A DNA stretch of 64,000 bases from Candidatus Egerieousia sp. (GCA_036804445.1 DAIRSJ010000002.1:2025-66024); one strand, 5' to 3'. Shown: positions 850 to 64,000, counted from the stretch's first letter. Program-made: numbers and translations. Notes: generated by a model from the letters alone, not told the origin.

Positions 850-2994
850 TCATAAATTAAATCTTATCCCTGCTTTTATATTGAGCAGGGATTTTTTTTC
901 TCCTATCTTGTCGTTTGCAACGCATTTATAATTTTCTCCCAACTTTGCAAACAGCTCCAGCCATTTTGTAACACGTACCTGAGCAGTTGCGTAAAAATTA
1001 AAGCCGCGGCCGTACATCAACGCAGATGTGTACGTCATGGGCAAGTCATATTCAACAGCATACAAACGTCCGCTCCAACTATTTGCAGAATAATAAGTGC
1101 CGCAAAGATTAATAACCAGATGGGCAAATCTAATATTCGGCTGCAAAGCAAAAGCATAACTATTCATACTGTTATACTCCCCTTTTGCACTAAAACTAAA
1201 CCATTTTAAAACTCTGATTTTCACAATGGTCTTTTCTAGAAACACATTAGAAATGCTTGTCGTTTGTAAACGGCTGTAAGACAGGCGCTCGGAGACACTT
1301 AAGCTTCCCTTTAAATACTCAAATTTTACGTACGCTTTAATTGAAGAGGATGCCGAATTAATGTTAAACCTCGCCCACGGATAGTAAACATAATCTGTTC
1401 CAGCAGACATCTTTAAATTTCTAAAAATCCCGCCGTAAATTCTTAATGCGCATCCGTTCTGATTTGAACAAGAGGAAGTTGTTGTATATGCTCCCGCATG
1501 AGGATTTATATAACTCTTTGAATAACTGCGCATTAAAAAATTAATTTTCCATCCTCCGCTAAGTTGTGCGGAGCCTCCGGCCACAACGGCATATCCGGAA
1601 AGTTTTTCCCTGTCGGGAGAACTGTAAGCCGCCTCCCCAAAAATTCTTATCCCTCCGATAACCGCATAGAAATCGGCAGCGCAGTTCCAATGGAAATTAT
1701 CATAAATCTGATATCTGTTATAATCTTTTACACTTCTTCCGTTAATCTTATCATAACTGTAGCCGGCAAAAGAGACACCTATCTTAATTTTATTAAACAA
1801 AGCCGTAAGGTACGCTCCTGCAACTGTCTCATGCATTGTACCTTTTGTCCGCATTAAAGATTCAGAATCATGTACTCCACCGGAGATTAATGAAGTATAA
1901 CTTTTACCGTCCGTAGAAAGCCTTGCATCAATACCTTTGTATGAACCAAGAAGAGAAAACGTTAATCTGCCACATGAAATTTGAGCAGCCGCCCCGCGTA
2001 AAAAATTGTTCTCATCCGATGATGTGTAGGGAGAGACAACCTCTCCTCTTTTATAAAAACCGTATGCCTCCTCAGCCCCCTGCAAATTAAATGAATTCCA
2101 AAGAGTTAATCCCTGCCCAAATCTTGCGGAAAAATCTCCCGTAATTAAATTATCTATTGTAAAAGTTCTAAGTTCTGCAACATCTGTCCCTGAATTATTT
2201 TTCTTTAAACTATCGGCATCTGACACCTTATTCCTTCTTGTAAAATTCATATTGCGCAAAGCAATGCTGAATGAAATAAAATCTCCGCACGGAATTCTGT
2301 TTTTTTCAACCGCGGGTTCACCGGCATCCTTCTCAATTAAAAAAGCCGCCTCCACTTTGTTCAGCCATACCGTTCTGTATCTCAACTGAATATAATCCGG
2401 CGTTCCAAATGATTTTTTTGAATCTGTTGTATTTCCCGACAGCTGTACTTTCCTGGAATATTTGGAATATATTGTAGTGCTGCAGTCTTTAAAAAAATTC
2501 CCCGGCTGCAAACCCGCCTCACCAAAGTAAACAAAAGGACGTAAGAGATTGACAACCTCTTCATCGAATCCGTTAAGCAACGAGAGTTCCGGATAAGATA
2601 TGACGGCCCCGTGGAGTTTTATATACTCCAGCAAAACCGTTATCTGAAAATCAGTAAGAATTATAAGCCTCTGCAAATCAGCGCGGGAAGCATTATTAAT
2701 ATTAAGAGGCGAGCGTAAAAGTTTTTCAAAATGCTCCATTATTTCCTCGACATTTGAATCTGAAAAACCGGTAGCTCCACCCGCTTCCGCATTTGTCCCC
2801 GCTGCTTCCGACGCCCCGTCCAAATTGCGATTACAATAATAATCAACTATTTGCTCAATAATTTTTTCTTTCCCGTCTCTCATCAGCAGTTGAGGCAACT
2901 CCTTTACAGTCTGGGAAAACAAGACTGTCGGAAGACAAAAAATAATAACGGCAATTAACAATACACACCTGCTCCGCAAGCCTGGACTTTTCAT
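850..2994 (-). CDS. Secreted helix-hairpin-helix (ComEA-like) domain protein with a large beta-rich C-terminal domain
   Basis: 714 aa with an N-terminal signal-like segment. The HhH region is NINNASRADLQRLIILTDFQITVLLEYIKLHGAVISYPELSLLNGF. The following ~550 aa are rich in alternating aromatic/Gly/Ser and end in ...KAGIRFNL, which looks barrel-like. Confidence 0.6.
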   Translation of the reverse strand: MKSPGLRSRCVLLIAVIIFCLPTVLFSQTVKELPQLLMRDGKEKIIEQIVDYYCNRNLDGASEAAGTNAEAGGATGFSDSNVEEIMEHFEKLLRSPLNINNASRADLQRLIILTDFQITVLLEYIKLHGAVISYPELSLLNGFDEEVVNLLRPFVYFGEAGLQPGNFFKDCSTTIYSKYSRKVQLSGNTTDSKKSFGTPDYIQLRYRTVWLNKVEAAFLIEKDAGEPAVEKNRIPCGDFISFSIALRNMNFTRRNKVSDADSLKKNNSGTDVAELRTFTIDNLITGDFSARFGQGLTLWNSFNLQGAEEAYGFYKRGEVVSPYTSSDENNFLRGAAAQISCGRLTFSLLGSYKGIDARLSTDGKSYTSLISGGVHDSESLMRTKGTMHETVAGAYLTALFNKIKIGVSFAGYSYDKINGRSVKDYNRYQIYDNFHWNCAADFYAVIGGIRIFGEAAYSSPDREKLSGYAVVAGGSAQLSGGWKINFLMRSYSKSYINPHAGAYTTTSSCSNQNGCALRIYGGIFRNLKMSAGTDYVYYPWARFNINSASSSIKAYVKFEYLKGSLSVSERLSYSRLQTTSISNVFLEKTIVKIRVLKWFSFSAKGEYNSMNSYAFALQPNIRFAHLVINLCGTYYSANSWSGRLYAVEYDLPMTYTSALMYGRGFNFYATAQVRVTKWLELFAKLGENYKCVANDKIGEKKSLLNIKAGIRFNL
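866..899 (+). terminator. Intrinsic terminator after the LysM gene
   Basis: A 9-bp stem (ATCCCTGCT / AGCAGGGAT) with a 9-nt loop is followed by T8. It overlaps the last codons of the convergent minus-strand gene. Confidence 0.7.
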
Positions 2995-3097
2995 AATTAT
3001 ACCTCCTGCATTCTATCTGACGGGAGACAAAAATAGCTCGCCATTTCAGCAATAGCGAGCCATAAAACGTATTTATCCGGACAATTAGAGAAATTGA

Positions 3098-3610
3098 CTA
3101 ATTTGTCTTAAACTTATACTTTACCTCTTTAAGTTCTGCATTTGCCTTTGCAATTTTTCCGGCAAGATCAGCCTTAAATTTTTCAAATTTCATAAACAGG
3201 TCTGCGTCCGACTGAGCTAAAATCTGTACGGCAAAGATGGCCGCATTTTTTGCACCGTCAACAGCCATTGTAGCAACAGGGATCCCGGACGGCATTTGTA
3301 AGATTGACAGTATTGAATCTATCCCGTGTATAGAATTTGAGGAATTAATGGGTACGCCTATCACGGGAAGAGGCGTGCTTGCCGCTATAACTCCCGGAAG
3401 ATGAGCAGCTCCGCCCGCACCGGCAATTATCACTTTAATTCCTCTCTTGTGAGCGTTCTTTGCAAAGTCAGCAACCATATCGGGCACCCTGTGTGCAGAA
3501 AGAGCGTTAATCTCAAAAGGAACTTCCATTTCATCAAGATATTCAGCAGCTTTCTCCATGATTTTTAAATCAGATGTGCTGCCCATAATAATACTTACAA
3601 GAGGTTTCAT
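3098..3610 (-). CDS. purE: N5-carboxyaminoimidazole ribonucleotide mutase
   Basis: 170 aa. Matches PurE motifs: [22 protein letters not shown] and PVIGVP. Confidence 0.9.
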
Positions 3611-4293: not shown

Positions 4294-4311
4294 TATCTGT
4301 CGCGACAGATA
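4294..4311. repeat. Perfect 18-bp palindrome TATCTGTCGCGACAGATA (core TCTGTCGCGACAGA), copy 1 of 3
   Basis: Read directly. It starts immediately after the hpt stop codon and ends 30 nt before the adk ATG. It is followed by an A/T tract (AAAAAATTTAAAA). Confidence 0.9.
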
Positions 4312-4905: not shown

Positions 4906-4971
4906 CCGGAATTAATCGTATAAATAGCAAGTACTATTAATTATAAAAATTAACCGTCGGGAGAATAAATT

Positions 4972-6631: not shown

Positions 6632-7684
6632 ATGCTTTTCATATCGGACACTTCAACGGATCCTTACAGAAACCTTGCGGAAGAGGAATATCTTCTTAAG
6701 TATAAATCGGAACCTATCTTCAGACTTTGGAGAAATGATAACGCAATAGTTGTTGGAAAGTATCAAAACGCGCTGGCTGAAATCAATGTCGATTATGTAA
6801 AAGAACATAACATTAAAGTTGTAAGAAGACTTACAGGCGGCGGAGCGGTTTTCCATGATTTGGGGAATATTAATTTTACTTTTATTCAGGAGAGGAATCC
6901 AAAAGAAGATACAGGAGAGATGTTCCGCAAGTATACGGTTCCTATCTTGGAAGCACTTAATTCTCTGGGAATTAAAGCATATCTGGAGGGAAGAAATGAT
7001 TTGCTGATAGACGGAAAGAAATTCTCCGGCAATGCCGTTTGCATCTGGAATAACAGGGCACTGAAACACGGAACTTTGCTGTTTGATTCCTCAATGAACG
7101 GAATCTCCGCGGCATTAAAAAGCAGGCCGGAAAAATTCATTGGCAAAGCGGTACAATCTAACCGGAGCAGAGTGACAAACATTAAGGAACATCTTGTTAA
7201 TCCCGACAGATTATCTTCATCAGATGCAATTTCTGCGCAAGACCTTGTCATACCGCATAATCCGGATGTGTTGTGGTTTAAAGATTTCCTTGGAGACTAT
7301 GTCTGCAAACACTGGGAGGGGAAAGATAGTGCGGTAAAATATGAACTGAGCAAGGCGGAAAATGAGGCTATCGAGACGCTTAAAAATATTAAGTACTCAA
7401 AAGATTACTGGAACTACGGCAACTCTCCTGAATATAGTCTGAGCAACATAAGAAAATTTCCCGGAGGAATTCTGGAATTCTACTTCACTGTAAATGACGG
7501 TATTATATCGGATCTGAATATAAGGGGAGATTATTTTTTCACGGCGCAGACAGAGGATTTCATCAAAAAAATGATTGGAACCGTTCATACCAAAGAGGCT
7601 ATTACAAAAAAAGTAAGCACCTTAAATATAGATGCTTACTTTGCCAATATAACTTCTGATGATATTGTGAACATGTTTTTTTAA
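6632..7684 (+). CDS. lplA: Lipoate-protein ligase A
   Basis: 350 aa with RRLTGGGAVFHDLGNINFTF and the KFSGNA lysine motif typical of LplA. Confidence 0.8.
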   Translation: MLFISDTSTDPYRNLAEEEYLLKYKSEPIFRLWRNDNAIVVGKYQNALAEINVDYVKEHNIKVVRRLTGGGAVFHDLGNINFTFIQERNPKEDTGEMFRKYTVPILEALNSLGIKAYLEGRNDLLIDGKKFSGNAVCIWNNRALKHGTLLFDSSMNGISAALKSRPEKFIGKAVQSNRSRVTNIKEHLVNPDRLSSSDAISAQDLVIPHNPDVLWFKDFLGDYVCKHWEGKDSAVKYELSKAENEAIETLKNIKYSKDYWNYGNSPEYSLSNIRKFPGGILEFYFTVNDGIISDLNIRGDYFFTAQTEDFIKKMIGTVHTKEAITKKVSTLNIDAYFANITSDDIVNMFF

Positions 7685-8081: not shown

Positions 8082-9017
8082 TCAACCTCCTTTTTTTGCT
8101 CTTGGATGAGCAGTTAAATATACTTTTTTTAACTGTTCAAAAGAGTTATGCGTATAGACTTGTGTTGCAGCCAGCGACGAATGCCCGAGGACCTCCTTAA
8201 TGCTGTTGAGGTCAGCGCCGTTGTTAAGCAGCGCGGTAGCAAAAGAATGCCTCAGCACGTGCGGCGATTTCTTTCCGCTAAACCCTTTCAAACCTGTCAA
8301 TTCTTTCTTTACTACATCATTAACAAACTTAAGGTAAATTTCACCGCCTTTGTTTGTCAAGAAAAAAGCATCAGTTTCACAATGAGGAAAGGTCTTATTT
8401 CTTAATTGTAAATATACTAAAAGATTCTCTAAAAGAGAAGGGATTACGGGAATCTCCCGTTCCTTATTGCCTTTTCCGACAATTTTAAATATACTGCGGC
8501 TGATATCCAGATTCCCCGTAGTTAATCCTGCCACTTCAGCCCGCCTCATACCCGTATCGTAAATCAGCATCACAATAGTCCTGTCTCTTAACGCCTCATA
8601 ATTGTCACCTAAAATAGGTCTCTTCAAATATCCGGCCACGGCGTCCTGCGTGTAAAATTCAGGCAGCCGCTTTTTCTCTTTAGGTCTGAAAATTTCCTTC
8701 ACGGGATTACTCTGCAAAACATTCTGTTTCAGCAGATAATTACAATAAGTACTTAGACCGCTTAACATTAAATTTATTGTCTCCGGGTTAAGCCCCTTCT
8801 CCATACCGTCCGCCACAAAACCGCGCAGGTTCAAAGGCGTAAGCAGCTTAAGCCGCTCCTCCTCCGTACCAGGCATCTCAGTTCCGGAGTCCTTTAAACT
8901 GTCGCGATACATATACTCATAAAATCGCTTAATAGTCTCTTTATAAAGAGATTGCGTCCGCGGAGAATACCGCTTCCGCACCCTGAGAAAATCTATAAAA
9001 TCTTCCGCCCTGCCCAT
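8082..9017 (-). CDS. Tyrosine site-specific recombinase, XerC/XerD-like
   Basis: 311 aa with catalytic signature RRAE...HVLRHSFAT...LGHSSLAATQVYTH. It sits between rpsU and hpf with no flanking repeats. Confidence 0.8.
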   Translation of the reverse strand: MGRAEDFIDFLRVRKRYSPRTQSLYKETIKRFYEYMYRDSLKDSGTEMPGTEEERLKLLTPLNLRGFVADGMEKGLNPETINLMLSGLSTYCNYLLKQNVLQSNPVKEIFRPKEKKRLPEFYTQDAVAGYLKRPILGDNYEALRDRTIVMLIYDTGMRRAEVAGLTTGNLDISRSIFKIVGKGNKEREIPVIPSLLENLLVYLQLRNKTFPHCETDAFFLTNKGGEIYLKFVNDVVKKELTGLKGFSGKKSPHVLRHSFATALLNNGADLNSIKEVLGHSSLAATQVYTHNSFEQLKKVYLTAHPRAKKGG

Positions 9018-11394: not shown

Positions 11395-13524
11395 ATGAGA
11401 CCAAAATTTTCAGAAATATTATATAAAGACAACAGCGCCCCTATTAAGTTGAAAGAGAGCGAGTGGCTGACACCGGAAAAAATAGAGGTTAAGACAAACT
11501 ATACGGAGAAAGATTTAGAAGGAATGGAGCATTTAAGTTATGCCGCCGGAATTCCTCCTTTCTTAAGAGGCCCTTACAGCACAATGTATGTTCAAAGACC
11601 TTGGACCGTAAGACAATACGCAGGTTTCTCCACGGCAGAAGAATCCAATGCGTTCTACAGAAGAAACCTTGCAGCGGGACAGAAAGGTCTGTCGGTTGCA
11701 TTTGACCTTCCAACACACAGGGGATATAATGCGGATAATCCGAGAGTTGTTGGTGATGTGGGAAAGGCCGGCGTAAGTATCTGCTCGGTAGAAGATATGA
11801 AAGTTCTGTTTGACCAGATTCCTCTTGGGAAAATGTCCGTATCAATGACAATGAACGGAGCCGTTCTTCCAATCCTGGCTTTTTATATAGTAGCAGGTCT
11901 TGAGCAGGGAGTGAAACTGGAAGAAATGCAGGGAACTATACAAAATGATATCCTTAAGGAGTTTATGGTACGCAATACTTACATCTATCCGCCTGAGTTT
12001 TCCATGAAAATAATAGGTGATATTTTTGCGTACACTTCCAAGTACATGCCTAAGTTCAACTCCATTTCAATCTCCGGCTACCACATGCAGGAGGCGGGCG
12101 CAACCAACGATATTGAGATGGCATACACACTTGCAGACGGCCTTGAGTATTTGAGAACCGGTATCAATGCAGGCATAGAGGTGGACAAGTTTGCACCGCG
12201 TCTGTCTTTCTTCTGGGCCATCGGCACCAATCACTTTATGGAGATTGCCAAGATGCGCGCAGCAAGATTATTGTGGGCAAAACTGGTAAACCGGTTCCAT
12301 CCAAAGAGCACTAAGTCTCTGTCGCTAAGAACACACTGCCAAACCAGCGGATGGTCATTAACGGAGCAAGATCCTTTTAATAATGTTGCAAGAACCTGCG
12401 TTGAGGCAATGGCGGCAGCACTGGGGCATACACAGTCTCTTCATACAAATGCACTGGACGAGGCAATTGCACTCCCGACGGATTTTTCCGCACGTATTGC
12501 AAGAAATACCCAGCTTTACATTCAGCAGGAAACTGCGGTTTGCAAATCAATTGACCCATGGGCAGGCTCATATTACATTGAATCTCTGACAAATGAACTG
12601 GCTCACAAAGCATGGGCCCACATTCAGGAAATTGAGAAACTTGGCGGAATGGCAAAGGCAATTGAGACCGGTATTCCCAAGTTGAGAATTGAGGAGGCAG
12701 CCGCACGCAAGCAGGCAAGAATTGACTCCGGAGAGGAGACAATCATTGGTCTGAACAAGTACAGACTGGAGCATGAGGACCCTATCAAGATTCTTGACAT
12801 TGATAATACTAAAGTGCGCAATCAGCAAATTGCCAGACTGGAAGAGCTAAGAAAGAATAGAGACAATCAGAAAGTTGAACAGTGTCTTGCAGCAATCACA
12901 GAGGCCGTAGAAACCAAGAAAGGCAACCTGCTTGAACTTGCAGTTGAGGCGGCAAAAGCGCGCGCATCTCTTGGAGAAATCTCAGATGCATGTGAGAAAA
13001 TTGTTGGAAGATACACAGCAAAAATTCGTATGAACGTAGGCGTATATTCATCTGAAGTTAAGAAAGATGCAGAGTTTGAGAAAGCCAAGAAAATGGTTGC
13101 GGACTTTGCAAAGAAAGAGGGCCGTCAGCCAAGAATCATGATTGCAAAACTTGGTCAGGATGGTCACGACAGAGGTGCCAAAGTTGTTGCAACCGGCTAC
13201 GCTGATTGCGGCTTTGATGTAGATATGGGACCGTTGTTCCAGACACCTGCGGAGGCTGCAAAACAAGCTGTTGAGAATGACGTCCACATCATCGGAATAT
13301 CGTCCCTTGCAGCGGGCCACAAGACTCTTGTACCTCAGGTAATTAGTGAACTTAAAAAACTCGGCCGCGAGGATATAATGGTTACAGTGGGCGGAGTTAT
13401 CCCGGCACAAGATTATAAAGTCCTTTACAAGGACGGTGCGGCTGCAATTTTTGGTCCCGGTACTAGAGTATCCTATTCTGTAATTAAAATGATGGAGTTG
13501 CTAAATCAAAAATTCAAAAAATAG
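11395..13524 (+). CDS. mutB: Methylmalonyl-CoA mutase large (alpha) subunit
   Basis: 709 aa with [27 protein letters not shown] and the B12-binding [11 protein letters not shown] (DxHxxG) motif. Confidence 0.95.
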
Positions 13525-16035: not shown

Positions 16036-16704
16036 TTACTCCTCAAAGGCAGTGAGTCCATGCTTAATTCCAAAAGCCACACATTCGGCAATTGTTTTTA
16101 AACCGAGTTTATTTTTAATCCTGTCCTTGTTGGTCTCGACAGTACTTTGATTTATATTCATCATAACGCCTATTTCCTTATTGCTGAAGCCGTCCGTAAC
16201 ATGCTGCAAGACTTCCATCTCCTTTTTACTCAAAGAAAATGGCTTTATCTTTTCAATGTTTTTTTCCCCCCCGAACATGTTTTCCAAAATCTCTTTTCCT
16301 ATTGTATCTCCAAAAAAAAGACAATTCCCCTTGTAAACATTACAGATTGCGTCTACCACCAGTTCCGGCAAGGAATCTTTAGCTAAATAAGCTTTGGATT
16401 TTGCCAGCAACGCACGGTATATGTATCGTCCGTTTTTAAACTGCGAAAGCATCATTGTCCTGACGGAAGGGTAATTATCCCTTATTTTCTCCGCGAGTTC
16501 CAAACCGTCTTCTCCCTCTTTCATGCAAACATCAATCGTTGCCACATCTATGTCCGGGTGCTGTTTTAATTGTTCCATCGCCTCATCAGGACAGCAGGCC
16601 TGATAAACGGAACCTATTCTATCATCACATTTCAGTACCGTTTGGAGGCCTATGATGTGAAGAGGCGAATCGTCTACTATAATAAGATTAATCTTTTTGT
16701 TCAT
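16036..16704 (-). CDS. Response regulator, NarL/LuxR family
   Basis: 222 aa. The receiver domain has DD at residues 11-12 and the acceptor Asp in VATIDVCM. The C-terminal LuxR HTH reads LSKKEMEVLQHVTDGFSNKEIGVMMNINQSTVETNKDRI. Confidence 0.85.
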   Translation of the reverse strand: MNKKINLIIVDDSPLHIIGLQTVLKCDDRIGSVYQACCPDEAMEQLKQHPDIDVATIDVCMKEGEDGLELAEKIRDNYPSVRTMMLSQFKNGRYIYRALLAKSKAYLAKDSLPELVVDAICNVYKGNCLFFGDTIGKEILENMFGGEKNIEKIKPFSLSKKEMEVLQHVTDGFSNKEIGVMMNINQSTVETNKDRIKNKLGLKTIAECVAFGIKHGLTAFEE

Positions 16705-19700
16705 TACAGATACTCTATAGAAATAGTGAAAATACTCCCTTGTCCTATCTTACTTTCAACAAATATACTCTCTCCCAATTTATTTAGCAACTCATTCACA
16801 ATAAGCAGACCAAGGCCCGTCCCTCTTTCTCCTGCAGTTCCGGACATCGAATTTCCGGGGCTAACCCTGAATAAGTTTTCAACGACATCCCTGCTCATTC
16901 CGGCACCAACGTCTTTCACGGATAACAATATCCTATGATCCGAGTTTGGAAAAGACTTGGAAAAAATTAATATTTCACCTCCTCGCGGGGAGAACTTTAC
17001 AGCATTACTCAACAAATTTCTCAAAATTGTTGTAAGCAAATTCAAATCCGTATGTACCTTAATATCAGCCCGTACCGTATTATGTATTAATACTGATTTA
17101 GCTTCAGCCTGATCAGAAACTTCCCGGATTGCCGAATTGACTATTCCTTCAAGCAAACAATCACTGAAGATCGGTCTTATTATCTTCCTTTGACCCAAAA
17201 CCCACATCAACAAAGAGTCTAATAATTCTGCCGTATTGGAAGAAGCCTTGCCGAGTTCTTCCAAACATTGTCCCAATTCCACATCATTCATTCCATGAAA
17301 ATTTTCTAACAGACTATGCGTCAGGTTCCTTATACCATAAACCGGATTTTTAAGGTCATGTGAAATTATAGAAAAAAACTTATTCTTCGATTCCACTTCT
17401 TCTTTGAGTTCCATGGTCCTTTTTTCTACAACTCTTTCTAATTTTTCATTCTTTTTGCGCAAAGTTCTCTCTCTGTACGATATCAATAGATAAGTCAGGA
17501 AACAAAAACAGATTACAAACAACAGAATAAAAGGCCAAGAAAGGAGCAAGGGCGCGGCTACTCTTATCTTAAGTTCAAATTTACCCGTTCCCGCCAAAAA
17601 TCCCGCATCCGCCACTTCACCGGCCCTGCCGGGCCATTTCCCCATAGCATTAGTGCACTGAATTTCAATTGTATATGCACCGGACGGAATCTTAGTGTAT
17701 TTTGCACTTAAAGACGGATACCGCACATAATTCCATCCCTTTTCGTAACCTTTTAGCCTGTAGCGATACTCTATGTATTTTCCGGTCACATAATCGCTTG
17801 AACCAAAATTGAAAGAAATGGTATTATCCTTATGATGCAACTTCTTGATTTTTCCGTACCCGGCCAAATCAGAATACAACAAATGTTCGCCGCACCGCAT
17901 ATCGGTAACCAGAATGGACGGAAAATGAACATCCGCCAACAAACTGTCGGGATTAAAAATATTAAAGCCGGCATCACCGCCAAATGCAAGTGACCCCTTA
18001 GGGGAAATATTACGCCCGCCCACATTTAAAGAGCAGGAAGCCCTTGTCGTATAGTTATCCTGCAAAAATCCAAGATACTTATGCAATACACCGATTCTGC
18101 CAAGTTTAGCCGAATAACAATATATACCGTCATTTGTGGAAACCCACATTCTATGATGTCTATCCTGTTCTATACTCATTATTTTCAAACCTTGCATGCC
18201 TTCTACCCTCTTCCCGATGGATTTTGTATTAAAATCATTGAACCGCTCACTACCGGGAAAAGACCATATACTTGATGAAGAAAACTTGGGAATGGATCTC
18301 ACCGGAACATAATAAAGTCCTGAGCCGGTTCCAACCCACATATTACCGTATATATCTCTTTTCAAACATGTTATATTGTTATCCGGCAATGAATTTGAAT
18401 CCCATGTATATGAACCGTAACGGCGCACTTTATCGGTAGCGGGATTTATCACGTTCACTCCGGCCTCCGTAGTGCCGTACCAAATATTGCCGAAGATATC
18501 CTCGGTTATGCAACTGGCCAGTCTTGAACTAACCGAATATTCATCCTTGTTGTAAAGAAGAAAAAATTTGCCTGTTTTTTTGTTGAATATCTCCATTCCG
18601 GCCTTGGTCCCAACAAAAAACAAAGTGTCATCTATCCCGTAGCAACCTCTGACATCATTGCTCGCTATGGAGACAGCATTCTCCGGATTATTAAAATAAC
18701 TGGCTCTAAGTTTATAATTACTACTTTCCACAACATAAAAACCATCGCTAGTGCTAAGATACAGTCTCCCGTCTCCGGCATTATAGATATCATTTATATG
18801 TTTGCCGGATAACCATTTACGCCCGGCCAAATTAACTTCCTCTTCTTTTATTTTTCTCTGACGGCTAATAATATGTTTCAAAATTTCCTCCGGCATGACC
18901 TTTAAGGGTTTAATATCATCCGTAGCAAGATCATGAACATAATTTTTGCCGCCGAATTGTATATAATTTTTCCCGCCCGCACAATAAATTATTTCATATC
19001 CTGACGTTCTCATTGGCAATTTCAACTGCCCGGGTTTCAGATAATTATAATACATATTCAAAATGCCGGCATTGGGATATCCGGGTGGAATTTTCTGAGT
19101 AAACTGGACAAATCTCTTGCTTTTAAGATCACAATAACCATAATATTTGCCTCCGGCAATATAGATGCGATTAAGCGCCCTTGAAAAAGTCGGAGCGGTT
19201 GTTTTGTCGTTAGGCATCATGGAACGCTGATAATAATTTTTTCCGGTAAAGGCCATAGAAGTCCTGTCGAATTGATTGAGACCTATTCCCTCCCATGTTG
19301 CAGCCCAAAAATTTCCGTGACTGTCTTCAAAGAAATCAGAATACCAATTCGAACCGAAGAAATTTCCTCCGAACAGATCACAATAATCTCCCGGAACTTC
19401 ACTCCAGAGAGCATAACGTCTTATCTCCTTCGTTTTCTTATTGTAGACATTAAAGCCTGCATGCGCCCAAAGACCGATATATATTATGCCTTTTGAATCC
19501 TGATAAAGACATGAAACATTATCCTCGTTCACATATGGATTCCTAATGATCCCCTGTCCGTGCAACCTATACTGCCGGAGCGTATATTTCTCTTTCGCGA
19601 CGGTTTTATTATCCAGCTTCCCGTAAAACAAACGGTATTTTATATTTCCAAACCTCCCAGATGACAAATCAAGAGTATCTACCCCATTATCCTTGGTTCC

Positions 19701-22633: not shown

Positions 22634-22692
22634 TTTACAAAAGCGCCACATTTTTTTCACGCGCTTAAATTCAACAAGTAAAAAAAATAATA

Positions 22693-22706
22693 TCTGTCGC
22701 GACAGA
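22693..22706. repeat. Perfect palindrome TCTGTCGCGACAGA, copy 2 of 3
   Basis: Read directly. Its context is AATAATATCTGTCGCGACAGAAAAATTTTTAAAAAAAAGATATG, and it ends 20 nt before the metY ATG. Confidence 0.9.
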
Positions 22707-22726
22707 AAAATTTTTAAAAAAAAGAT

Positions 22727-36671: not shown

Positions 36672-37253
36672 TTATTTAGATTTTTTTTCTGCAGTCATTG
36701 CAGCATTAAAGCAATGGCGGCAAAGGGGTTCGTATTTGTCCTGTTCTCCCAGCATTACAAGTTTGTCTCCGCCGGAGATACGGTGGGAGTGACGGGCTGG
36801 TTGTCCGCACTTGACGCAGATTGCATGAACTTTTGTAACATGCTCTGCAACAGCCATCAAAGCAGGCATTGGACCAAAAGGCTTACCTAGATAATCCATA
36901 TCCAGACCGGCGCATATTACACGCACTCCCCTATCGGCCAGCTGATTGCAGACATCAACTATTCCGTCATCAAAAAATTGAACTTCATCAATGCCAATTA
37001 CATCTACATCTGTCGCGAGCAATAAAATATTTTGTGAAGAATCCACATTATTGGACTCAATAGAATTCCTATCATGAGACACAACATCCTTATCTGAATA
37101 TCGTACATCTAAGGCAGGTTTGAAAATCTGCACCCGCTGATGCGCAAAATTAGCTCTTTTTAAGCGCCTTATGAGCTCCTCTGTCTTGCCGGAAAACATA
37201 GAACCGCAGATGACCTCAATCCATCCCGCCATATTTGTTCTTTCTTCAAACAT
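36672..37253 (-). CDS. tdk: Thymidine kinase
   Basis: P-loop [11 protein letters not shown] and a C-terminal zinc ribbon (CVKCG...CRHC). The true start may be the MAGWIEV Met at 37232. Confidence 0.9.
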
Positions 37254-46356: not shown

Positions 46357-46815
46357 GTGCGTTATTGCTCACCTTGCAAAATGGTACTAATTTTAGGGTA
46401 TATTATAATTGCAGGATATGAATGTCAATCCGCAACTTGTACATTTAGGGGGAGAGAATATACTGCATGGTTTACAAAAGAAGTTCCGGTGAATGCAGGT
46501 CCGTATAAATTCAGAGGGTTGCCGGGACTGATCGTTAAGCTGTATGATAAGATGGGGGATTATTGCTGGACCTTATCTGTATTTGTCAAGGCTCCGTCGG
46601 GAGAGACTATAAAAAATTACACATGGCAATACACAAATACTACCAAAGCAAAATATAACAACGCAATTAAGTGGATGTATGATGACCCTTATCAATTCTT
46701 TGGCTCTTTTGGGATGAAGTTTATGGTAAACTCAGGAAACGGATTCTCACCTAATCATGCAAAAGTAACTATCCCTTATAATCCGATTGAACTGTCTGAA
46801 GAGAAGGGCAAATAA
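46357..46815 (+). pseudogene. GLPGLI-family protein, apparently 5'-truncated
   Basis: It contains the family signature FRGLPGLIVKLYD and the conserved AGYECQSAT...AWFT block. Only 152 aa are present, with no signal peptide and no upstream ORF supplying an N-terminal half. Confidence 0.5.
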
Positions 46816-46840: not shown

Positions 46841-49524
46841 ATGAAAAGATATTGTATTTCATTTATCATCAGTTTATTATACATGTACTGCCTTACAAAC
46901 ACGGCTCAAGCTCAAGTAGTGTTGTCCGGTTATGTGCGTGAAATTAAGGGTGGTGCGGGGATGAGCGATATCAATGTCATTTTGCAGAACAGGAGCGGTA
47001 AGGGAATGATTGATTATACGCTGACTGATGAAAACGGCAGATTCACTTTACATTACGGCGGCAAGGCGGATACTTTACGTCTGCTTGCAACCGGAATGAA
47101 TATTAAAGCTGTGCACATTATTGTTCCCGCAAAATCTAATAACAATCTGATTATTAAGGTTGAGTCCGGTGCGTTAAAATTAAAGGAAGTGGTTGTAAAG
47201 GCACCGCCTCTGAGAAGACGCGGAGACACAATCAGCTATTATGTTAATAGTTATATAGATACGCTAAGGGACCGCTCTATTGGAGACGTACTAAAAAAAT
47301 GCCGGGGGTTAGAGTAGATGAAAGCGGAAGGATTGCCTACAATGGAAAGGATGTGAGCATTCTATATATTGAAGGACTGAACATGTTGGATGCAAGTTAC
47401 GGTGTGGCCACTAATCATGTAAGAGCCAAGGATATAGCAAAGGTGGACGTAATGGAGTTTCACCAGCCGGTAAAAGCGCTTAAAAACAAAGTTGCGTCGG
47501 ACATGGTTGCTATGAATCTGCATCTTAAGGAGAAAGTCAAAGGAACTTTTAATGAGACATTTACAATCGGAGGAGGATTTAAGCCGCTTATGTGGACGGG
47601 TGAAACTACAGCCATGTATTTTGCAAGAACCTTCCAAACGTTTAATAATTACCAGACTAACAACACCGGAATAGATGTTTCTGCTGAAATTGAAAGCATG
47701 GGCAGCACAGGCGGGCTCTCAGCAATGAGCGGAATTACAACTCCTCCGTCACCCCCTATTGCACGCAGCAGATATTTGAAAAATAATATTCATGCGCTAT
47801 CCGCCAACATGCTGGTGAAGAAAAAGAATCTTGAGTATGTCGCCAATATTAAATATTTCCACGATATCCGCAATTCGGCCGGCTCTTCTGTAAGCACGTA
47901 TTACTTTCAGAATCAGGACCCTCTGGTTGTAACGGAAAACACAGCCGCACATACGGTTAAGAATAATGTGGTAGGAAATTTCTGGCTGACAGCCAATACG
48001 GACAGTCTTTATCTTAAAGACAAGCTGAATATATCCGGCACCTGGGACAAATCCCGCAGCACGGTAAACAATCTGCAGCAGAACTTTACATCTCCGACAT
48101 TTTACATAGGAAATGATTTCTCTTATGTAAAACCCATGAAAAAAACATCCTTCAATTTTAATTTAAACGCAAGCTATGCCCGCCTGCCATCCACACTGCG
48201 CGTCAACCCATACCCCTATCTCTCTGTTTTTGGTTTGCCCGATACACTTTCTGTCATGTCCCGACAGAAGGTTACAACTGACAGGTTTTCAGGATATTTC
48301 AGCACAGGGTTTGGAAGGGATTTTACCTATTGGCACTTTGGTATTTTTGGGTCTGCCAGTGCGTGGGCGGACAGGATGACCAGCGGTATGAGTTACTTTA
48401 AGAATGCCGGTGGCGTTGGTGGCATTGCCGGTAGCGTTGGTGGTTGGACTGAAGGCGGCAGTGTTGCGGACTCCCTGAGGAATGACATCAATTTGCAGGC
48501 GATTACCGTTGACATGGGGCCCTATTTATCAATTGATTATAACAACTTTATCCTTTCCGTAAACCCTTATTTCAGATACAAATACCTGGGATACAATGAT
48601 AAAGTTGCCGATAGCAAATTCCACATGAACAAACTTGACGCCTGCCCGACAATGAGCTTAAGATTTGGAATCACAGAAGATTTGAAATTCTCCGCATCAG
48701 GACAATACAGAGTTGTATATGGAGGTCTTACAGACGTTTACAGCGGCTATATAATGGAGGATTACAGGTCTGTTTCCGGCACGGGGAGAATTCTGCCAAA
48801 AGATGAAACCCAAAATTATAGTGCAAGTCTCAATTACGGCAATGCGCTCATCTCCGTATTTGGAGCACTGTCGGGAAGTTACTGGTATGACAACTCCAAC
48901 CTTATGTACGGCAACATCTTTTACGGAGATCTAAGCAGAATAAAGAGCTATGAAATATCCAACAGTTCAAGCGGTTATAATCTTAACGGGAATATCAGCA
49001 AAAGATTCAACGACATTGCCACCACCTTCACGCTCTCTGCCGGATTTTCCAAAAGCAACAGCAAAGTTTACAGAAACGGAGACATCCTAAAAACCGGCTA
49101 CACATCCAAAAACTGCGCATTTGAAATTACCGGAAGAATAGGATATAACTTTGATTATGATTACAATGTAACATACACAACTTATAAAACCAGCATAGAG
49201 AATTCATCCTTGAAACTCAAGAGCATAGATGCAGTAAGGGAGAAGCTAACCCTGGACGCGAGCATGGCAAAAAGCGTGGTGATAAAAATATCCGGAGAAC
49301 ACTACTACAACAGCAGTATCGCTTCCGGCGACAGAAACATGTTCTTTGCGGACGCCTCCGTATCCTACAAGCGCAAAAGGATAGAATACATCATCTCCGC
49401 ACGCAATCTGTTCTACACAAAATCCTACAACACAAGCTATTATAACAGCATCAACTCTTACAGTTACAGCTATGATCTCCGCCCGCTCTCTGTGCTGTTT
49501 ACTGTGAGTTTTTCCTTGAGGTAA
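46841..49524 (+). pseudogene. CarboxypepD_reg + plug + beta-barrel outer membrane protein, split by a -1 frameshift at an A7 tract
   Basis: ORF 46841-47317 ends ...SIGDVLKKCRGLE*. ORF 47299-49524 begins MPGVRVDESGRIAYNG. One extra A in the tract at 47293-47299 would give the contiguous motif GDVLKKMPGVRVDESG. Confidence 0.7.
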
Positions 49525-53303: not shown

Positions 53304-54047
53304 ATGGATGCAAATAAGAACACACAGAGGGAAGAGGTTATTAAAATTGATAGCCTGTATAAGATTTACCATCTTGGAGAAGAGGATGTGGTAAATGCAT
53401 TAGACGGCGTTTCACTGTCTATCTGGAAGAATGATTTTGTGGCAATCATGGGACCTTCCGGCAGCGGAAAATCTACAATGATGAACATCCTTGGATGCCT
53501 GGACACTCCAACATCAGGCAAGTACATTCTTAACGGAACGGATGTCAGCAAGATGAATGACGGAGAACTTGCGGACGTAAGAAATAAAGAGATCGGATTT
53601 GTATTCCAGTCTTTTAATCTTCTTCCAAAATACAGTGCTCTGGAAAATGTTGCACTTCCTATGATTTATGCCGGCGCAACAAAACATGAAAGGTTGGAAA
53701 AAGCCAAAAAATCGCTTAATATAGTCGGGCTTGCAGAAAGAATGTCTCACAAGCCTTCTGAACTTAGCGGAGGTCAGAAACAAAGAGTTGCAATTGCAAG
53801 AGCGCTTATCAACGACCCTACAATTATTTTGGCAGACGAACCGACAGGAAATCTTGATACAAAGACATCTATTGAGATTATGAAAATTTTTGAGGAGATA
53901 TACAAGACCGGAAATACTATTATTTTGGTAACACATGAGGAGGATATTGCAAAATTTGCAAGAAGAATCGTAAAGCTCCGCGACGGTAAAATTGAAAGTG
54001 ACGTCGCCAATCCCAATCCGGCAATGCAATCTATCTCAATTAAATAA
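53304..54047 (+). CDS. ABC transporter ATP-binding protein (MacB/LolD-like)
   Basis: Walker [10 protein letters not shown], signature [15 protein letters not shown] and Walker [12 protein letters not shown]. No permease gene is adjacent. Confidence 0.85.
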
Positions 54048-55020: not shown

Positions 55021-55155
55021 TGACTTTTTGCCTTATTTATACTTTTTATAACTATGCCAAGTTTTTTGTCATCCCGGCCGCAACACTATTTACAGTCCCG
55101 ACGGCAACTCATAATAAACTCAGCATTATCAAAATAATATTACCTTTGCAGCGGT

Positions 55156-59516: not shown

Positions 59517-60473
59517 CTAACTATTATTAATCCACTTTAAAAAACTCCTTACTTTTTCATCTTTGCTCTTCTTCTCCTTAAATTGAGGCTTGACCTTCAC
59601 TTTCTCAAAACCTTCTCCATAAACAGCAGAAACGTTCCCTACCGTCACAAACGCCCTGTTGTCAATATTTTTTATAGATGACATTATGCCTGCAACCTGA
59701 TACTTTCTTGCAACCACAACAAGAACTTTGCTCTCATCTTTTGTGTACCATCCCATTGAATCCAGAGCAGTAACTCCGCGATGTTCATCACTGATAAGCA
59801 TGTCTGCAATCGCCTGATATTTGCCGGAGATAACCATTATCTGGACAGACTGCTGCCGTCCGGTAAGAAAGGCATCTAACATATATGAAAATGAGACAGT
59901 TGTAAGATAACCGTAAATAAAATCACTTAAACCTTTTCCCGGCAGGAAGAGAATGGAACCAATAATTATAAGATCACAGTACATGAAAACTTTTCCGGGA
60001 GAAGTGTCGTAATATTTTGTAAGAACGAGGGCAACGATATCAGTACCTCCGGTGCTGCCGCCCTTCTTAAAAATCATAGAAATTCCTACTGCCAGAATTG
60101 CTCCGCCGAGCACTGCTGATACAAGCTTGTCAGATATATCTGAAAGACTCATCAGCCAATGCCAGTGCGGCATTACCGCCAAGAAAAAAGTTGCGCACAA
60201 AATGCTGTAAATTGTCTTGAACCCGAATCCTCTCCCAAGAATAATAGTTCCTAATAAAAGCAATATCACATTAATTCCAATATAGCTGACATACAATGGA
60301 ATAAAGCCATTGGTAGCATATTGAATATTTGTAGCAAGACCTGTAACGCCACCGCCTGTAATTCCCTGGGGAGTAATAAACGCCGTCCACCCGCCGCAAT
60401 AGATGAACACACCTACTGTAATAACAAAATATTCAAAAATTATCTTTGATACGGTTGCAACTTTGCCTGCCAT
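59517..60473 (-). CDS. YitT-family membrane protein (paralog)
   Basis: 318 aa with the same architecture (GGSTGGTDI, VYGEGF). It is in tandem with the previous gene, and its start abuts the leuS stop. Confidence 0.8.
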   Translation of the reverse strand: MAGKVATVSKIIFEYFVITVGVFIYCGGWTAFITPQGITGGGVTGLATNIQYATNGFIPLYVSYIGINVILLLLGTIILGRGFGFKTIYSILCATFFLAVMPHWHWLMSLSDISDKLVSAVLGGAILAVGISMIFKKGGSTGGTDIVALVLTKYYDTSPGKVFMYCDLIIIGSILFLPGKGLSDFIYGYLTTVSFSYMLDAFLTGRQQSVQIMVISGKYQAIADMLISDEHRGVTALDSMGWYTKDESKVLVVVARKYQVAGIMSSIKNIDNRAFVTVGNVSAVYGEGFEKVKVKPQFKEKKSKDEKVRSFLKWINNS

Positions 60474-63283
60474 TACATTACAATATTGATAATTCTTCCA
60501 GGGATAACTATAACTTTTTTAACACTGTTCTCTCCAATATATTTTGCGGTCTCCTCTGCAGCAAGAACGGCCTTTTCAACCTCCTCCTTTGACAAACTTT
60601 TTGCAAGAGAAATCTTAAATCTTGTCTTGCCGTTGAAAGACACCGGATAGTCAAAATTCTCTTCTCTTGTGTACTTCTCCTCATACTTAGGAAATTCCGC
60701 AAATGAAATGCTTCCTTTGTGTCCCGACAGACTCCACAATTCCTCGCAGATATGAGGTGCAAAAGGTGAAAGCAAAATTATGACCGGCTCCATAATTGCT
60801 CTCTTATTGCACTTTAAATCAGACAATTCATTAGTGGCAATCATAAACGCCGAAACGGAAGTATTGTATGAGAAATTGGAAATATCATCATCCACTTTTT
60901 TAATAAGCTTGTGTAATACTTTTAGTTCCAGAGCGTTTGGAGCCTCATCGGAAAGATTAATCTCTCCTTCCGCATTTGGTTTTCCGCCAAATTCTCCAAA
61001 GAACATTTTCCATAACCGCTTAAGGAATCTGTTAACTCCGTCTATTCCTTTTGTATCCCACGGTTTGCTCTGCTCAACCGGTCCAAGGAACATCTCATAA
61101 AGTCTCAATGTATCAGCACCGTACGTATCGCATATACTGTCGGGATTTACAACATTGTACATAGATTTGCTCATCTTCTCAATGGCCCAGCCGCACTTGT
61201 ACTCCCCGTTCTCCAATATGAATTCAGCTTTTGCAAAATCCGGCATCCACTTTTTAAAGCCTTCTATATCAAGCTTATCATTGTGAACAAGATTTACATC
61301 AACATGAATTTCCGTTGTTTCATATTTGTCCTTAAAGCCAAAAGACACAAACTTATTTGTATTCTTAATCCTGTATACAAAGTTGGAACGGCCCTGTATC
61401 ATCCCCTGATTTATAAGTTTTTGGAATGGCTCCGGTTCTGCAACATAACCTAAATCATAAAGAAATTTATTCCAAAAACGGGAGTAAATCAAGTGACCCG
61501 TAGCATGCTCAGTTCCGCCTACGTACAAATCAACATTTCTCCAATATTCATCCGCATCTTTGCTTACAAGAGCCTCATTATTATGAGGATCCATATATCT
61601 CAGATAATAAGCGCTGCTCCCTGCAAAACCGGGCATGGTACTTTTCTCCAAAGGATAACCCTTGTATGTCCAGTCTTTTGCTCTGGCCAATGGAGGTTCT
61701 CCGTCCGCAGTTGGCTTAAATGACTCAACCTTTGGAAGTTGCAGCGGCAACTCATCTTCCGGGATTGGGGTTGCAACACCATCTTTGTAATAAATCGGGA
61801 ACGGCTCCCCCCAATATCTTTGTCTGGAGAATATAGCATCCCTCAGCCTGTAATTAATTTTCTTTTTACCTATGCCGCGTTTCTCCACTTCCGCAATCCC
61901 CAGAGGAATAGCCTCTTTAACGGTTTTACCGGAAAGAAATCCGCTGTTGCACATAACTCCATCCTTTGCATCAAAACTCTCTTTGCTTATGTCACATCCT
62001 TCAATAAGAGGAATTATTTTGAGATTAAATTTTTTTGCAAAAGCGTAGTCTCTGCTGTCATGAGCGGGAACGGCCATGATTGCACCCGTACCGTAACCTG
62101 CAAGAACATACTCTGAAATCCAAATCGGAACTTTATCTCCCGTAAAAGGATTGACCGCATAAGAGCCGGAGAACACGCCGGTTACGGTATGCGTCTCCGC
62201 AATTCTCTCACGCTCCGTTTTCTTTTTAGCCTCTTTCAGATAAGTGTCAACATCACTCTTTTGTTCCTTTGTTGTAAGCAGCTCCACCCACTCGCTCTCA
62301 GGAGCAAGTACCATAAACGTAACTCCGAAAACAGTATCTGCACGAGTAGTGAATATTTTCATATCATGCTCAGAATTAGCAGGCTGCCCGTTTGCAGGAT
62401 CAGGATTTGACACCTTGAAAACAATCTCGGCTCCGTAAGATTTTCCTATCCAGTTGCGCTGCATCTCTTTTAGAGCATCTGTCCACTGAAGCTTGTCCAA
62501 ATCATCAAGCAATCTCCCCGCATAAGCGGAAATCCTCAGCTGCCACTGCTTCATTCTTTTCTGTTCAACCGGAAAACCTCCGCGCACAGAGAGCCCCTCT
62601 TTCACTTCATCATTTGCCAATACGGTTCCAAGTTTTGAGCACCAGTTCACAGATGTTTCCCCCTGATATGCAATACGATACTGCATAAGTATATCTGATT
62701 TTTCTTTTTCTGAAAAACCCTTCCACTGTTCCGCGGAAAAGACATTAACGTCTCCGCACGCAGCGTTTACTTTTTTATTTCCTTCTGCCTCAAATATTTT
62801 TACAAGTTCCTCAACCGGCTCCGCTTTGCGATGCTCATTATTGTACCAGCACCCAAACATTTTTAAGAAAGCCCACTGCGTCCATTTATAATATCCCGGA
62901 TCACAAGTTCTAACCTCTCTGTCCCAGTCAAAAGAGAAACCGATTCTATCCAGCTGCTCTCTGTATCTATTTATGTTATTGACAGTTGTAACCTCAGGAT
63001 GTTGCCCCGTCTGAATTGCATACTGCTCCGCAGGAAGACCAAAAGCATCATAACCCATTGGGTGTAAAACATTAAAACCTTTAAGTCTTTTGTATCGGCT
63101 GTAAATATCGCTTGCTATATAACCTAGAGGATGTCCTACATGTAATCCCGCACCTGAGGGGTAAGGGAACATATCCAATACGTAATACTTTGGTTTTGAA
63201 AGATCTGTTTTAACTTTAAACGTTCCGTTCTTAGCCCAGAACTCCTGCCACTTCTTTTCTATCTCCTTAAAATTGTAATCCAT
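60473..63283 (-). CDS. leuS: Leucyl-tRNA synthetase
   Basis: 936 aa with HIGH-type [13 protein letters not shown], and an editing-domain insertion. Confidence 0.95.
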
Positions 63284-63322
63284 TGAGCAACAAAATTTAT
63301 AAACTATTCTATATTTCGACAG

Positions 63323-64000
63323 CTATTTTTTTATGCCAAAGCTGCCTTTATTTTTTGTCAAAATAAATTCTACGGGAAGAGACATCCTTACGCTGACGTT
63401 GGAGCCGTCGAGTGTTGCAGGCTTCCATTTTGGAGAAGCTTTAAACACTTTAATAACCTCATTGTCAATATCGTCACTGAGACTCTTTGTTATCTTGATA
63501 TCTCTTACCGCACCCGTTTTATCAACAACAAACTCCACTTGCTCCGTCCCTTCTATTCCCTCTGCAATTGCACTGTCGGGATATTTAACATACTGATAAA
63601 CCCACTCCTTAAGAAAGTACCTTTCATCACCTTTTAGGAATGTTGCCCTGTGATCCACACCTTGCTGGGTGTAAATTATCTCACTCTTGCCGCCGACCTT
63701 CTCTTCTACGGACTTAAGCCCTTTATCTATTTTTTGTTCCCGTGATGCGGCCGTCAATGCAAAAGAGTAAATAAACTCCGCAATTTGATCCATTTGAAAG
63801 TAATCCAACGTCTCAGGCGTATCTTTTACCGTGTTCATCCGTGAATGCGAACCTGTAGTAAACAACACCGCAGGTATTTCTTTCTGATAGAAGTTTCTAT
63901 AATCTGAGCCAAAAGGTTCTTTATCTGACAATGAAGGGGTTACAGAGAAAGGATTTGACGCTATGGCTCCGATAATTCCGTTTATATCAGGGTTCTGAAC
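63323..64000 (-). CDS. C-terminal part of an M28-peptidase-like protein fused to a TonB_C-like domain (5' end outside window)
   Basis: The frame stays open upstream of the tracked TTG start to the window edge. An M28-like tail (GSDYRNFYQKEIPAVLFTTGSH...DT) is followed by a TonB C-terminal-like segment (YPDSAIAEGIEGTEQVEFVVDKTGAVRDIKI...PKWKPATLDG). Confidence 0.55.
   Translation of the reverse strand, partial: VQNPDINGIIGAIASNPFSVTPSLSDKEPFGSDYRNFYQKEIPAVLFTTGSHSRMNTVKDTPETLDYFQMDQIAEFIYSFALTAASREQKIDKGLKSVEEKVGGKSEIIYTQQGVDHRATFLKGDERYFLKEWVYQYVKYPDSAIAEGIEGTEQVEFVVDKTGAVRDIKITKSLSDDIDNEVIKVFKASPKWKPATLDGSNVSVRMSLPVEFILTKNKGSFGIKK

Follow-up and report, generated by a model that had tools for sequence, protein, structure and literature searches.

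A hyper-abundant, orientation-independent 9-mer with an adjoining A-tract in Candidatus Egerieousia and related Bacteroidales as a candidate self-DNA tag

A 64,000-nucleotide stretch of Candidatus Egerieousia sp. (GCA_036804445.1 DAIRSJ010000002.1:2025-66024; hereafter the window, with positions counted from its first letter) is studded with exact copies of one asymmetric 9-mer, CTGTCGGGA, and the same word is strongly enriched in other regions of the genus and in related genera. Egerieousia is genus UBA1232 of family UBA932 in GTDB (PMC8035907). We read CTGTCGGGA, tentatively and with a probability of roughly 45%, as the core of a lineage-specific self-DNA tag that resembles an uptake signal. 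What we observe is the genomic signature of such a tag, from which we infer a role in uptake. We favor this reading because the enrichment acts at the DNA level, orientation is balanced, density is equal across regions, the word and not the site is conserved, sites are retained within the genus, and the core carries a one-sided A-rich extension.

The window has a G+C content of 41% and is about 94% coding. CTGTCGGGA is its most frequent 9-mer, above all A/T-rich low-complexity words, with 19 exact copies (10 on the plus and 9 on the minus strand) where dinucleotide-preserving shuffles expect 0.19 and never yield more than 2. Allowing up to one mismatch gives 45 matches against 6.97 expected, and the neighboring word CCGTCGGGA alone accounts for five copies against 0.08 expected. 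A preliminary description, made by reading the window without database searches, had listed the 19 copies and the five neighbors together with the peptides that some of them encode (AVGK, LSGT, TVGI, LSGK, TPDR, NPDR, VPTD, and SRQK), and all of these proved correct. The choice of null model matters for a word this frequent. A maximal-order Markov expectation (17.3 against 19 observed) is uninformative, as its sub-words are dominated by the motif itself, and orders 5 and 6 share the problem. Because higher-order sub-words are swamped in this way, Markov orders 0 to 3 and a codon shuffle were chosen as nulls.

To look beyond the window, a metagenome collection was probed with the palindrome WATCTGTCGCGACAGAWAA, a form of the companion element described below. 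Of the 45 loci obtained, those with about 40 to 42% G+C belong to the same genus; many derive from contigs of 0.5 to 0.9 Mb, and they cover about eight genome regions outside the window. CTGTCGGGA was no part of the probe, and these regions still match the density of the window. In the pooled genus sample of nine genome regions, CTGTCGGGA occurs 50 times in 156 kb, or about once per 3.1 kb (0.32 per kb), where Markov orders 0 to 3 expect 0.35 to 0.77 copies. The excess first noticed in the window thus holds against Markov expectation in other regions of the genus, within the 156 kb sampled. The exact copies in the window, with strand and context, are as follows.

1610-1618, plus: antisense in a gene for a 714-residue uncharacterized protein (850-2994, minus); polymorphic, sister locus L091 having CTCCCGGGA
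2434-2442, minus: sense, Leu-Ser-Gly, in the same gene (850-2994, minus); invariant across aligned sister strains
7201-7209, minus: antisense in lplA (6632-7684), peptide NPDR
17944-17952, plus: with the long extended consensus AAACTGTCGGGATTAAAAATATTAAAG; antisense in a hybrid sensor kinase gene (16704-20858, minus); repeat family D2
25055-25063, plus: in the overlap of the end of a metX-like gene (24028-25098) with the start of thrA; a recent gain
27035-27043, plus: sense, Leu-Ser-Gly, in thrA; other genera have VSG with different codons
28860-28868, minus: left arm of an inverted pair in the intergenic spacer before parE; also present in L001 and L002
28875-28883, plus: right arm of that pair, with GTAAAAATAT after it
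30717-30725, minus: antisense, 3' end of parE (TPDR); alone among the window sites in being shared with another genus (L003)
33002-33010, plus: with the long extended consensus AAACTGTCGGGATAACAAATATTAAAG; sense, 3' end of a TolC-like gene (31537-33132)
37608-37616, minus: antisense in an uncharacterized gene (37304-37981)
42076-42084, plus: sense (LSGK), 3' end of an ABC-2 permease gene (40801-42168)
42239-42247, minus: antisense, 5' end of a 5'-nucleotidase-like gene (42187-43149)
44714-44722, minus: sense in an outer-membrane beta-barrel gene (44046-46193, minus)
48259-48267, minus: antisense (SRQK) in an uncharacterized gene (47299-49524)
48868-48876, plus: sense (LSGS) in the same gene (47299-49524)
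60722-60730, minus: sense (LSGH), 3' end of leuS (60473-63283, minus)
61137-61145, plus: antisense in leuS
63573-63581, plus: antisense in a TonB-C gene (63323-63931, minus)

The force on CTGTCGGGA acts on DNA and not on protein. Eight of the 19 copies lie in the sense and nine in the antisense direction of genes, two are intergenic, and several reading frames are represented. Shuffling synonymous codons within each gene (1,000 shuffles), which preserves all proteins and the codon usage of each gene, yields 0.37 +/- 0.59 coding copies, with a maximum of 4, against the 17 observed. Moreover, CTG-TCG-GGA spells 5 of the 15 Leu-Ser-Gly tripeptides of the window, TCG being the rarest serine codon (6%). 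The shuffle and this spelling together place the constraint on the word itself, in agreement with the preliminary description. Among the pooled genus copies, CTG-TCG-GGA (Leu-Ser-Gly) is used 11 times, xCT-GTC-GGG-Axx 12 times, antisense Pro-Asp-(Arg/Ser) 11 times, and two other antisense frames 7 times, while the frame that requires Cys-Arg (CGG) has 0 copies in this sample. Such frame usage is as expected if the word settles at places that the proteins tolerate.

Raw repetition alone might suggest something trivial, namely, a mobile element or miniature inverted-repeat transposable element (MITE), a repeated protein motif, or assembly or adapter contamination, and we consider this extremely improbable. 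Neither in the window nor at the 50 genus sites is there flank conservation beyond A-rich positions, and a repeat finder joins the copies only through a short extension; the copies are thus not those of one dispersed mobile element, a possibility to which the preliminary description had pointed. Repetitive extragenic palindromic (REP) elements and MITEs share extended flanks and are intergenic, whereas 82% of CTGTCGGGA copies are intragenic. Copies use several reading frames, lie on either strand, and extend to intergenic DNA, their number rejects the codon-shuffle null, and identical sites recur in independent assemblies from NCBI, ENA, and JGI. On the strength of flanks, frames, codon shuffle, and independent assemblies, we reject a mobile element, a protein motif, and an artifact alike.

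The two orientations are interleaved along the window without any link to the direction of transcription. A 10:9 balance has a probability of 0.006 under an 80% skew, 0.027 under 75%, and 0.07 under 70%, and single loci of 12 to 15 kb from long contigs hold both orientations. On these grounds, a strongly polar signal, of the type of Chi, the FtsK-orienting polar sequences (KOPS), or the architecture-imparting sequences (AIMS), is unlikely, which bears out what had been argued earlier from the balance in the window. The specific proposal would be a Chi-like recombination hotspot or a polar mark, read by AddAB/RecBCD or by FtsK. It has some appeal, since CTGTCGGGA, like Chi, KOPS, and AIMS, is a short over-represented word scattered through genes at comparable spacing. 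Chi in Escherichia coli has a similar density, about one site per 3 kb, known Chi sequences are G-rich like CTGTCGGGA, and Bacteroidota have AddAB and, to our knowledge, no defined Chi sequence. Those polar words, however, are strongly co-oriented with replication and modestly enriched, known Chi sites less than 10-fold, far below the 65- to 100-fold of the balanced CTGTCGGGA. An A-tract extension of the double-stranded type, as described next, is also unexpected for a signal read on a single strand. Together with the orientation data, these differences make a Chi- or KOPS-type signal very unlikely.

The conserved element is longer than its core. The 50 genus sites yield the consensus AA-n-CTGTCGGGA-nnn-AAAAW-n-A, of which the part up to W makes an element of about 20 bp. 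Upstream, A is favored at positions -3 (28/50) and -2 (30/50). Downstream, an A-tract lies three to six bases past the core, A at the sixth base being present in 37 of 50 sites (background, 29.5%; p = 1e-10), and A is favored again at the ninth base. The A/T-rich 3' flank of the preliminary description is therefore real and can be sharpened to an A-tract at fixed spacing. On the motif strand, the sixth-base A is found at 16 of 23 sense and 13 of 18 antisense copies, and intergenic sites are alike, so the A-tract is not a coding-strand effect. The repeat finder shows how far individual copies can agree, those at 17941 and 32999 sharing 25 of 27 bases across 27 nt. No second A-tract in helical phase was seen at the 50 genus sites.

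With regard to placement, 9 of the 50 genus copies (18%) are intergenic against 8.3% non-coding DNA (p = 0.02), an approximately twofold excess, and the first and last tenths of genes also hold more copies than expected (14 of 41; p = 0.02). The inverted pair at 28860-28883 had been likened to the paired DNA uptake sequences (DUS) of Neisseria. It does fold into a hairpin (-18 kcal/mol), but it is neither placed nor built as a Neisseria-type terminator, for it lacks a T-run and lies 20 nt before the parE ATG. A TAATTTTG box at 28842-28849, about 10 nt upstream of the pair, resembles the Bacteroidetes -7 promoter box (TAnnTTTG); if it is one, the parE transcript would carry the hairpin at its 5' end.

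Inverted pairs of the word were also sought in IMG/VR. The scan returned 15 matches where about 14 are expected by chance (18 bases, 19 gap lengths, and about 50 Gb assumed), and we treat them as chance or unrelated. Six of the matches belong to one phage family (contigs L072 and L074 to L078; 33 to 43% G+C), in which a single terminator-like hairpin, TCCCGACAG-N8-CTGTCGGGA, has a T-run behind it (for example, at 307-332 of L077) and flanks unlike the extended motif; L077 has a second copy pair at 8217 and 8311.

How far the word extends was followed through ParE. A search of species-representative genomes placed the window among uncultured Bacteroidales and gave one locus, L001, with ParE 99% identical to that of the window and about 96% nucleotide identity, and a second, L002, from an uncultured Bacteroidales member also named Candidatus Egerieousia sp., with 97% and 91.5%, respectively. 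A search for ParE-encoding contigs found only short ones (up to 17.6 kb) and no further genome regions. In seven loci from other genera (ParE 65 to 72% identical; 138 kb), CTGTCGGGA is again the top enriched 9-mer, with 20 copies against 0.73 expected, and the top enriched 8-mer is CTGTCGGG. In a neighbor-joining tree of ParE, the loci that bear CTGTCGGGA form one clade, while neighboring lineages and Rikenellaceae are without the word. Outside the clade there are 17 matches against 6.7 expected, and because 10 of the 17 represent one conserved coding position, leaving about 7, we see no enrichment there. That position reads TCCCGACAG and lies in the gene downstream of parE in Rikenellaceae-type genomes (locus position 12535 in L011, L020, L031, L035, L054, and L061, with the equivalent in L018, L025, L030, and L038). 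It encodes ..PDFPD[R/S]..GMID and is a coincidence at the protein level.

In two loci, L006 and L007, the conserved part is reduced to CTGTCGG, with 12 to 13 copies against fewer than 2 expected, a dialect-like pattern. Loci outside the clade served as negative controls, and their abundant 9-mers are local tandem repeats and not dispersed words, with units of about 170 bp (L012, 12492-13050), 7 nt (L033, 2055-5851), and 10 nt (L059, 5690-20498). Two further observations concern single loci. In L049, ATCGAAAAA has eight copies in 21.8 kb, seven of them on one strand, which probably reflect the peptide Ile-Glu-Lys in co-oriented genes. L007 and L023 are labeled Candidatus Egerieisoma sp., a genus of Clostridia (NCBI taxonomy; PMC8035907), and yet by ParE both fall inside the same Bacteroidales clade as the window, with which they also have gene content in common; the label appears to be wrong and is unusable for taxonomy.

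Across this clade of genera the word is kept, and individual sites turn over. Codon-level alignments show that copies are almost never orthologous between genera, window sites appearing as other codon spellings in relatives and the reverse; one Leu-Ser-Gly, for instance, is spelled TTAAGCGGA in the window and CTGTCGGGA by L004. In comparisons within the genus (about 92% nucleotide identity), 15 of 17 sites persist, as opposed to about 50% of 9-mers overall (p = 0.001, with pairs that are not fully independent). An aligned sister strain exists for 17 of the 19 window sites, 15 of which do not vary in any aligned strain. Three changes could be polarized, one gain and two losses. The copy at 25055 arose by an A-to-G change, for CTATCGGGA stands there in five sister loci, among them the more distant L002 and L109. 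Those at 12473 and 55096 were lost by T-to-C changes, the window having CCGTCGGGA where sister strains retain a perfect CTGTCGGGA. The enriched one-mismatch neighbors are mainly single transitions (CCGTCGGGA, 10 against 0.8 expected; CTATCGGGA, 9 against 0.5) or position-7 changes, and CCGTCGGGA represents mostly decayed copies of CTGTCGGGA. The variants in the window are as follows.

4954-4962, plus: CCGTCGGGA, one-transition variant
12473-12481, minus: CCGTCGGGA, decayed copy; perfect CTGTCGGGA in L002, L109, L117, and L095
15213-15221, minus: CCGTCGGGA variant
46594-46602, plus: CCGTCGGGA variant
55096-55104, minus: CCGTCGGGA, recently decayed copy; perfect CTGTCGGGA in L088, L097, and L095
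8899-8907, plus: single copy of CTGTCGCGA, a position-7 variant
35662-35670, plus: single copy of CTGTCGCGA
37010-37018, plus: single copy of CTGTCGCGA
16134-16142, minus: CTGTCGAGA, a position-7 variant
37662-37670, plus: CTGTCGAGA
38993-39001, minus: CTGTCGAGA
40495-40503, minus: CTGTCGAGA
13164-13172, minus: CTGTCGTGA
31868-31876, plus: CTGTCGTGA

The overall picture is of a force that creates and keeps the word, balanced by mutational erosion, with the word itself fixed while the genera diverged. Gene content has changed as well. The 7.4-kb segment 13531-20916, which encodes a 747-residue uncharacterized protein, a LuxR-type response regulator, and a 1,384-residue hybrid sensor kinase, is absent from L002 and is a between-species indel; it still holds one exact and one decayed copy.

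Turnover of this kind might also be left by a process with no function at the word, a by-product of sequence-specific mutation, repair, or biased gene conversion, such as repair of the very-short-patch type or a nicking enzyme through which near-matches become the word. The single transitions among the enriched neighbors (CCGTCGGGA and CTATCGGGA) and the one A-to-G gain and two T-to-C losses within the genus are what such a process would leave. An enrichment of 65- to 100-fold for a 9-mer is too large for it, however, known repair biases, such as Vsr/CCWGG in E. coli, shifting word counts by small factors. Nor would it explain an A-tract three to six bases off the core or the recurrence of the same word across genera whose ParE proteins are 65 to 72% identical, and we judge a repair by-product quite unlikely.

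A rarer palindrome, CTGTCGCGACAG, accompanies the 9-mer in the genus. It lies at 4297, 22694, and 53278 of the window, in each case within the 16-nt form ATCTGTCGCGACAGAT, and can be read as an overlapping, inverted pair of the position-7 variant CTGTCGCGA, with the half-site CTGTCG in common with the main word. Each copy leads into CAG and an A/T-rich run, a layout that matches the extended motif.

4295-4310, palindrome ATCTGTCGCGACAGAT: 4 nt after the stop of an hpt-like gene and 34 nt before the start of adk
22692-22707, palindrome ATCTGTCGCGACAGAT: 22 nt before the start of a Cys/Met-metabolism gene (22727-24004); conserved in L001 and L002
53276-53291, palindrome ATCTGTCGCGACAGAT: between a stop 2 nt upstream and, 15 nt downstream, the start of an ABC ATPase gene (53304-54047)

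In loci of the genus (the form (TA)ATATCTGTCGCGACAGATAT(TA) is seen in L089, L092, L099, L096, L119, L124, and others), the palindrome usually occupies short spacers between co-directional genes, 2 to 9 nt past a stop and at most about 60 nt before the next start; 2 of 15 copies fall inside a predicted open reading frame. The full form, TAATATCTGTCGCGACAGATATTA, provides TAA on either strand, and as RNA the palindrome folds weakly (-4.4 to -8.9 kcal/mol). Its placement recalls the inverted pairs that DUS and uptake signal sequences (USS) form at gene ends (bioRxiv 10.1101/2025.10.24.684340), and it may serve as a terminator, an operator, or a double uptake site. The metagenome loci were fetched with the palindrome itself, which inflates the pooled count of CTGTCGCGA, and for this variant the window counts alone were used.

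The palindrome brings in a further alternative. CTGTCGGGA might be a word tied to DNA methylation in the manner of HIP1 (highly iterated palindrome 1), the target or part-target of a clade-specific methyltransferase with an epigenetic or repair link. In favor of this, CTGTCGCGACAG has a CGCG center and co-occurs with the 9-mer in the genus, and HIP1 (GCGATCGC) of cyanobacteria is, like CTGTCGGGA, a lineage-wide hyper-abundant word in coding DNA whose function is debated; a preprint likewise presents it as conserved and hyper-abundant throughout its lineage (bioRxiv 10.64898/2026.06.24.733823). HIP1, however, is a palindrome and a methylation target, whereas the abundant word here is asymmetric, and the preliminary label of HIP-like does not fit it. 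The palindromic companion is rarer by a factor of about six and restricted to the genus, and the window holds no methyltransferase gene. A role of the HIP1 type is, in our estimate, very improbable.

Some other features of the window deserve brief mention. Scans for tRNA genes and Rfam families over the 64 kb found no tRNA gene and no family above threshold. The tyrosine recombinase encoded at 8082-9017 scores as XerC/XerD-like and not as a phage integrase. A 12-nt tandem repeat of about nine AGATTGAGGGAC-like units (31414-31528) fills the spacer between an acyltransferase gene and the TolC-like gene.

A more serious alternative is that the element is bound on the resident chromosome by a clade-specific protein, serving the nucleoid, segregation, or the marking of self against a defense system or nuclease, with CTGTCGCGACAG as the dimer form and selection keeping about one site per 3 kb. 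The fixed 9-bp core with an A-tract at fixed spacing is much like a protein footprint with DNA bending, a palindromic version with the CTGTCG half-site is present in the same genomes, sites are retained above background within the genus, and independence of orientation suits recognition of double-stranded DNA. We still regard this as rather unlikely. Positions differ between genera, a pattern better suited to drive than to a position-specific function, and no candidate protein was identified. We know of no chromosome-organizing system that uses hundreds of exact non-palindromic 9-mers lying mostly inside genes; parS, matS, the Noc-binding sites (NBS), and the SlmA-binding sites (SBS) are palindromic and number in the tens per genome. 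A broader proposal is that the element is no uptake signal but the read-out site of an undescribed genome-wide system of the Bacteroidales. A protein would recognize the asymmetric 9-mer with its A-tract about once per 3 kb in either orientation, and as a dimer the palindrome just past stop codons, and would mark or organize the chromosome of the cell itself, for instance so that defense or repair can distinguish self from foreign DNA. We consider this unlikely; no system known to us uses a signal of such form.

If CTGTCGGGA is instead the core of a self-DNA tag, a sequence-specific DNA receptor of the natural-transformation apparatus would bind double-stranded fragments that bear the element in either orientation, and the A-tract beside the core may make the DNA easier to bend or kink at the onset of uptake. 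Fragments from conspecific cells that bear the tag would be imported and recombined at higher frequency. The resulting drive would insert new copies wherever proteins tolerate them, mostly through synonymous or conservative codon choices, and point mutations, mostly transitions, would erode them. Binding during uptake, natural transformability, and the receptor itself are all inferred from the genomic signature.

The closest likeness is to the USS of Pasteurellaceae. The USS of Haemophilus influenzae has a 9-bp core with one-sided T-tracts, is mostly intragenic, and is shared across its family (PMC3458573). Like that word (AAGTGCGGT plus T-tracts), CTGTCGGGA is a non-palindromic 9-bp core with a one-sided A/T-rich extension, hyper-abundant on both strands, mostly intragenic in tolerant frames and over-represented in non-coding DNA, and conserved as a word at the family level while its sites turn over. 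The two differ in that the sequences are unrelated and belong to different phyla, and in that CTGTCGGGA has about one third of the density and a single A-tract and is a candidate uptake word. The DUS of Neisseriaceae (AT-GCCGTCTGAA and its dialects), which is read by the minor pilin ComP, is likewise a clade-wide word with dialects, comparable to the CTGTCGG of L006 and L007. It also forms inverted copies at gene ends, for which the counterpart here would be the overlapping palindrome just past stop codons. Unlike DUS, CTGTCGGGA is 82% intragenic, and its sole separated pair has no T-run.

Self-preferential uptake is plausible in the phylum. Riemerella columbina, also of the Bacteroidota, prefers its own DNA in uptake competition, and its enriched k-mers are only A-rich and of low complexity, at three to four times expectation (PMC7965970). 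There, own-DNA preference was found by competition with no specific motif, while here a specific motif has been found from sequence alone. In the papers that we retrieved, sequence-specific uptake words (DUS and USS) are described for Neisseriaceae and Pasteurellaceae only (PMC7965970; bioRxiv 10.1101/2025.10.24.684340). The literature searched contains no report of an uptake sequence or a comparable specific word for Bacteroidota, in keeping with a remark to that effect in the preliminary description, and a search for CTGTCGGGA and its reverse complement returned primers and unrelated sequences only. We classify the element as an uptake-signal-like word, which would have evolved independently and in a new phylum.

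Several considerations weigh against this assignment. The sole competence-type gene seen in 64 kb, at 38697-39749 on the plus strand, encodes a possible periplasmic DNA binder, in which ComEA-type helix-hairpin-helix repeats follow a hydrophobic N-terminal stretch; the preliminary description had spoken of such genes in the plural, and one is borne out. ComEA-type proteins occur widely and as a rule bind DNA irrespective of its sequence, so that this gene is weak evidence for a specific tag. A density of 0.32 per kb is about one third of the level in Haemophilus and Neisseria. At the scale of the window, a moderate replichore skew (70% or less) stays compatible with the 10:9 balance, and the sample comprises about 156 kb from the genus together with 138 kb from related genera. 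In principle, any protein that reads double-stranded DNA genome-wide could give the same static signature. Finally, 18% of the copies are intergenic and the sole separated inverted pair does not look like a terminator, and in genomes with DUS or USS about half of the copies lie in terminators (bioRxiv 10.1101/2025.10.24.684340).

The motif AA-n-CTGTCGGGA-nnn-AAAAW makes the question of uptake testable. Should the uptake reading be wrong, a conserved, orientation-free word at such density would point to an unknown DNA transaction. Should it be right, CTGTCGGGA would be a third, independently evolved uptake word, in a Bacteroidales lineage abundant in the animal gut, and self-preferential natural transformation would operate in anaerobic gut communities. 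The motif would then be a means of finding the DNA receptor in a phylum for which no ComP-type receptor has been described, a sequence tag with which to follow gene flow and recognize foreign DNA in these metagenome-assembled genomes, and a practical handle for transforming uncultured or hard-to-transform Bacteroidales.

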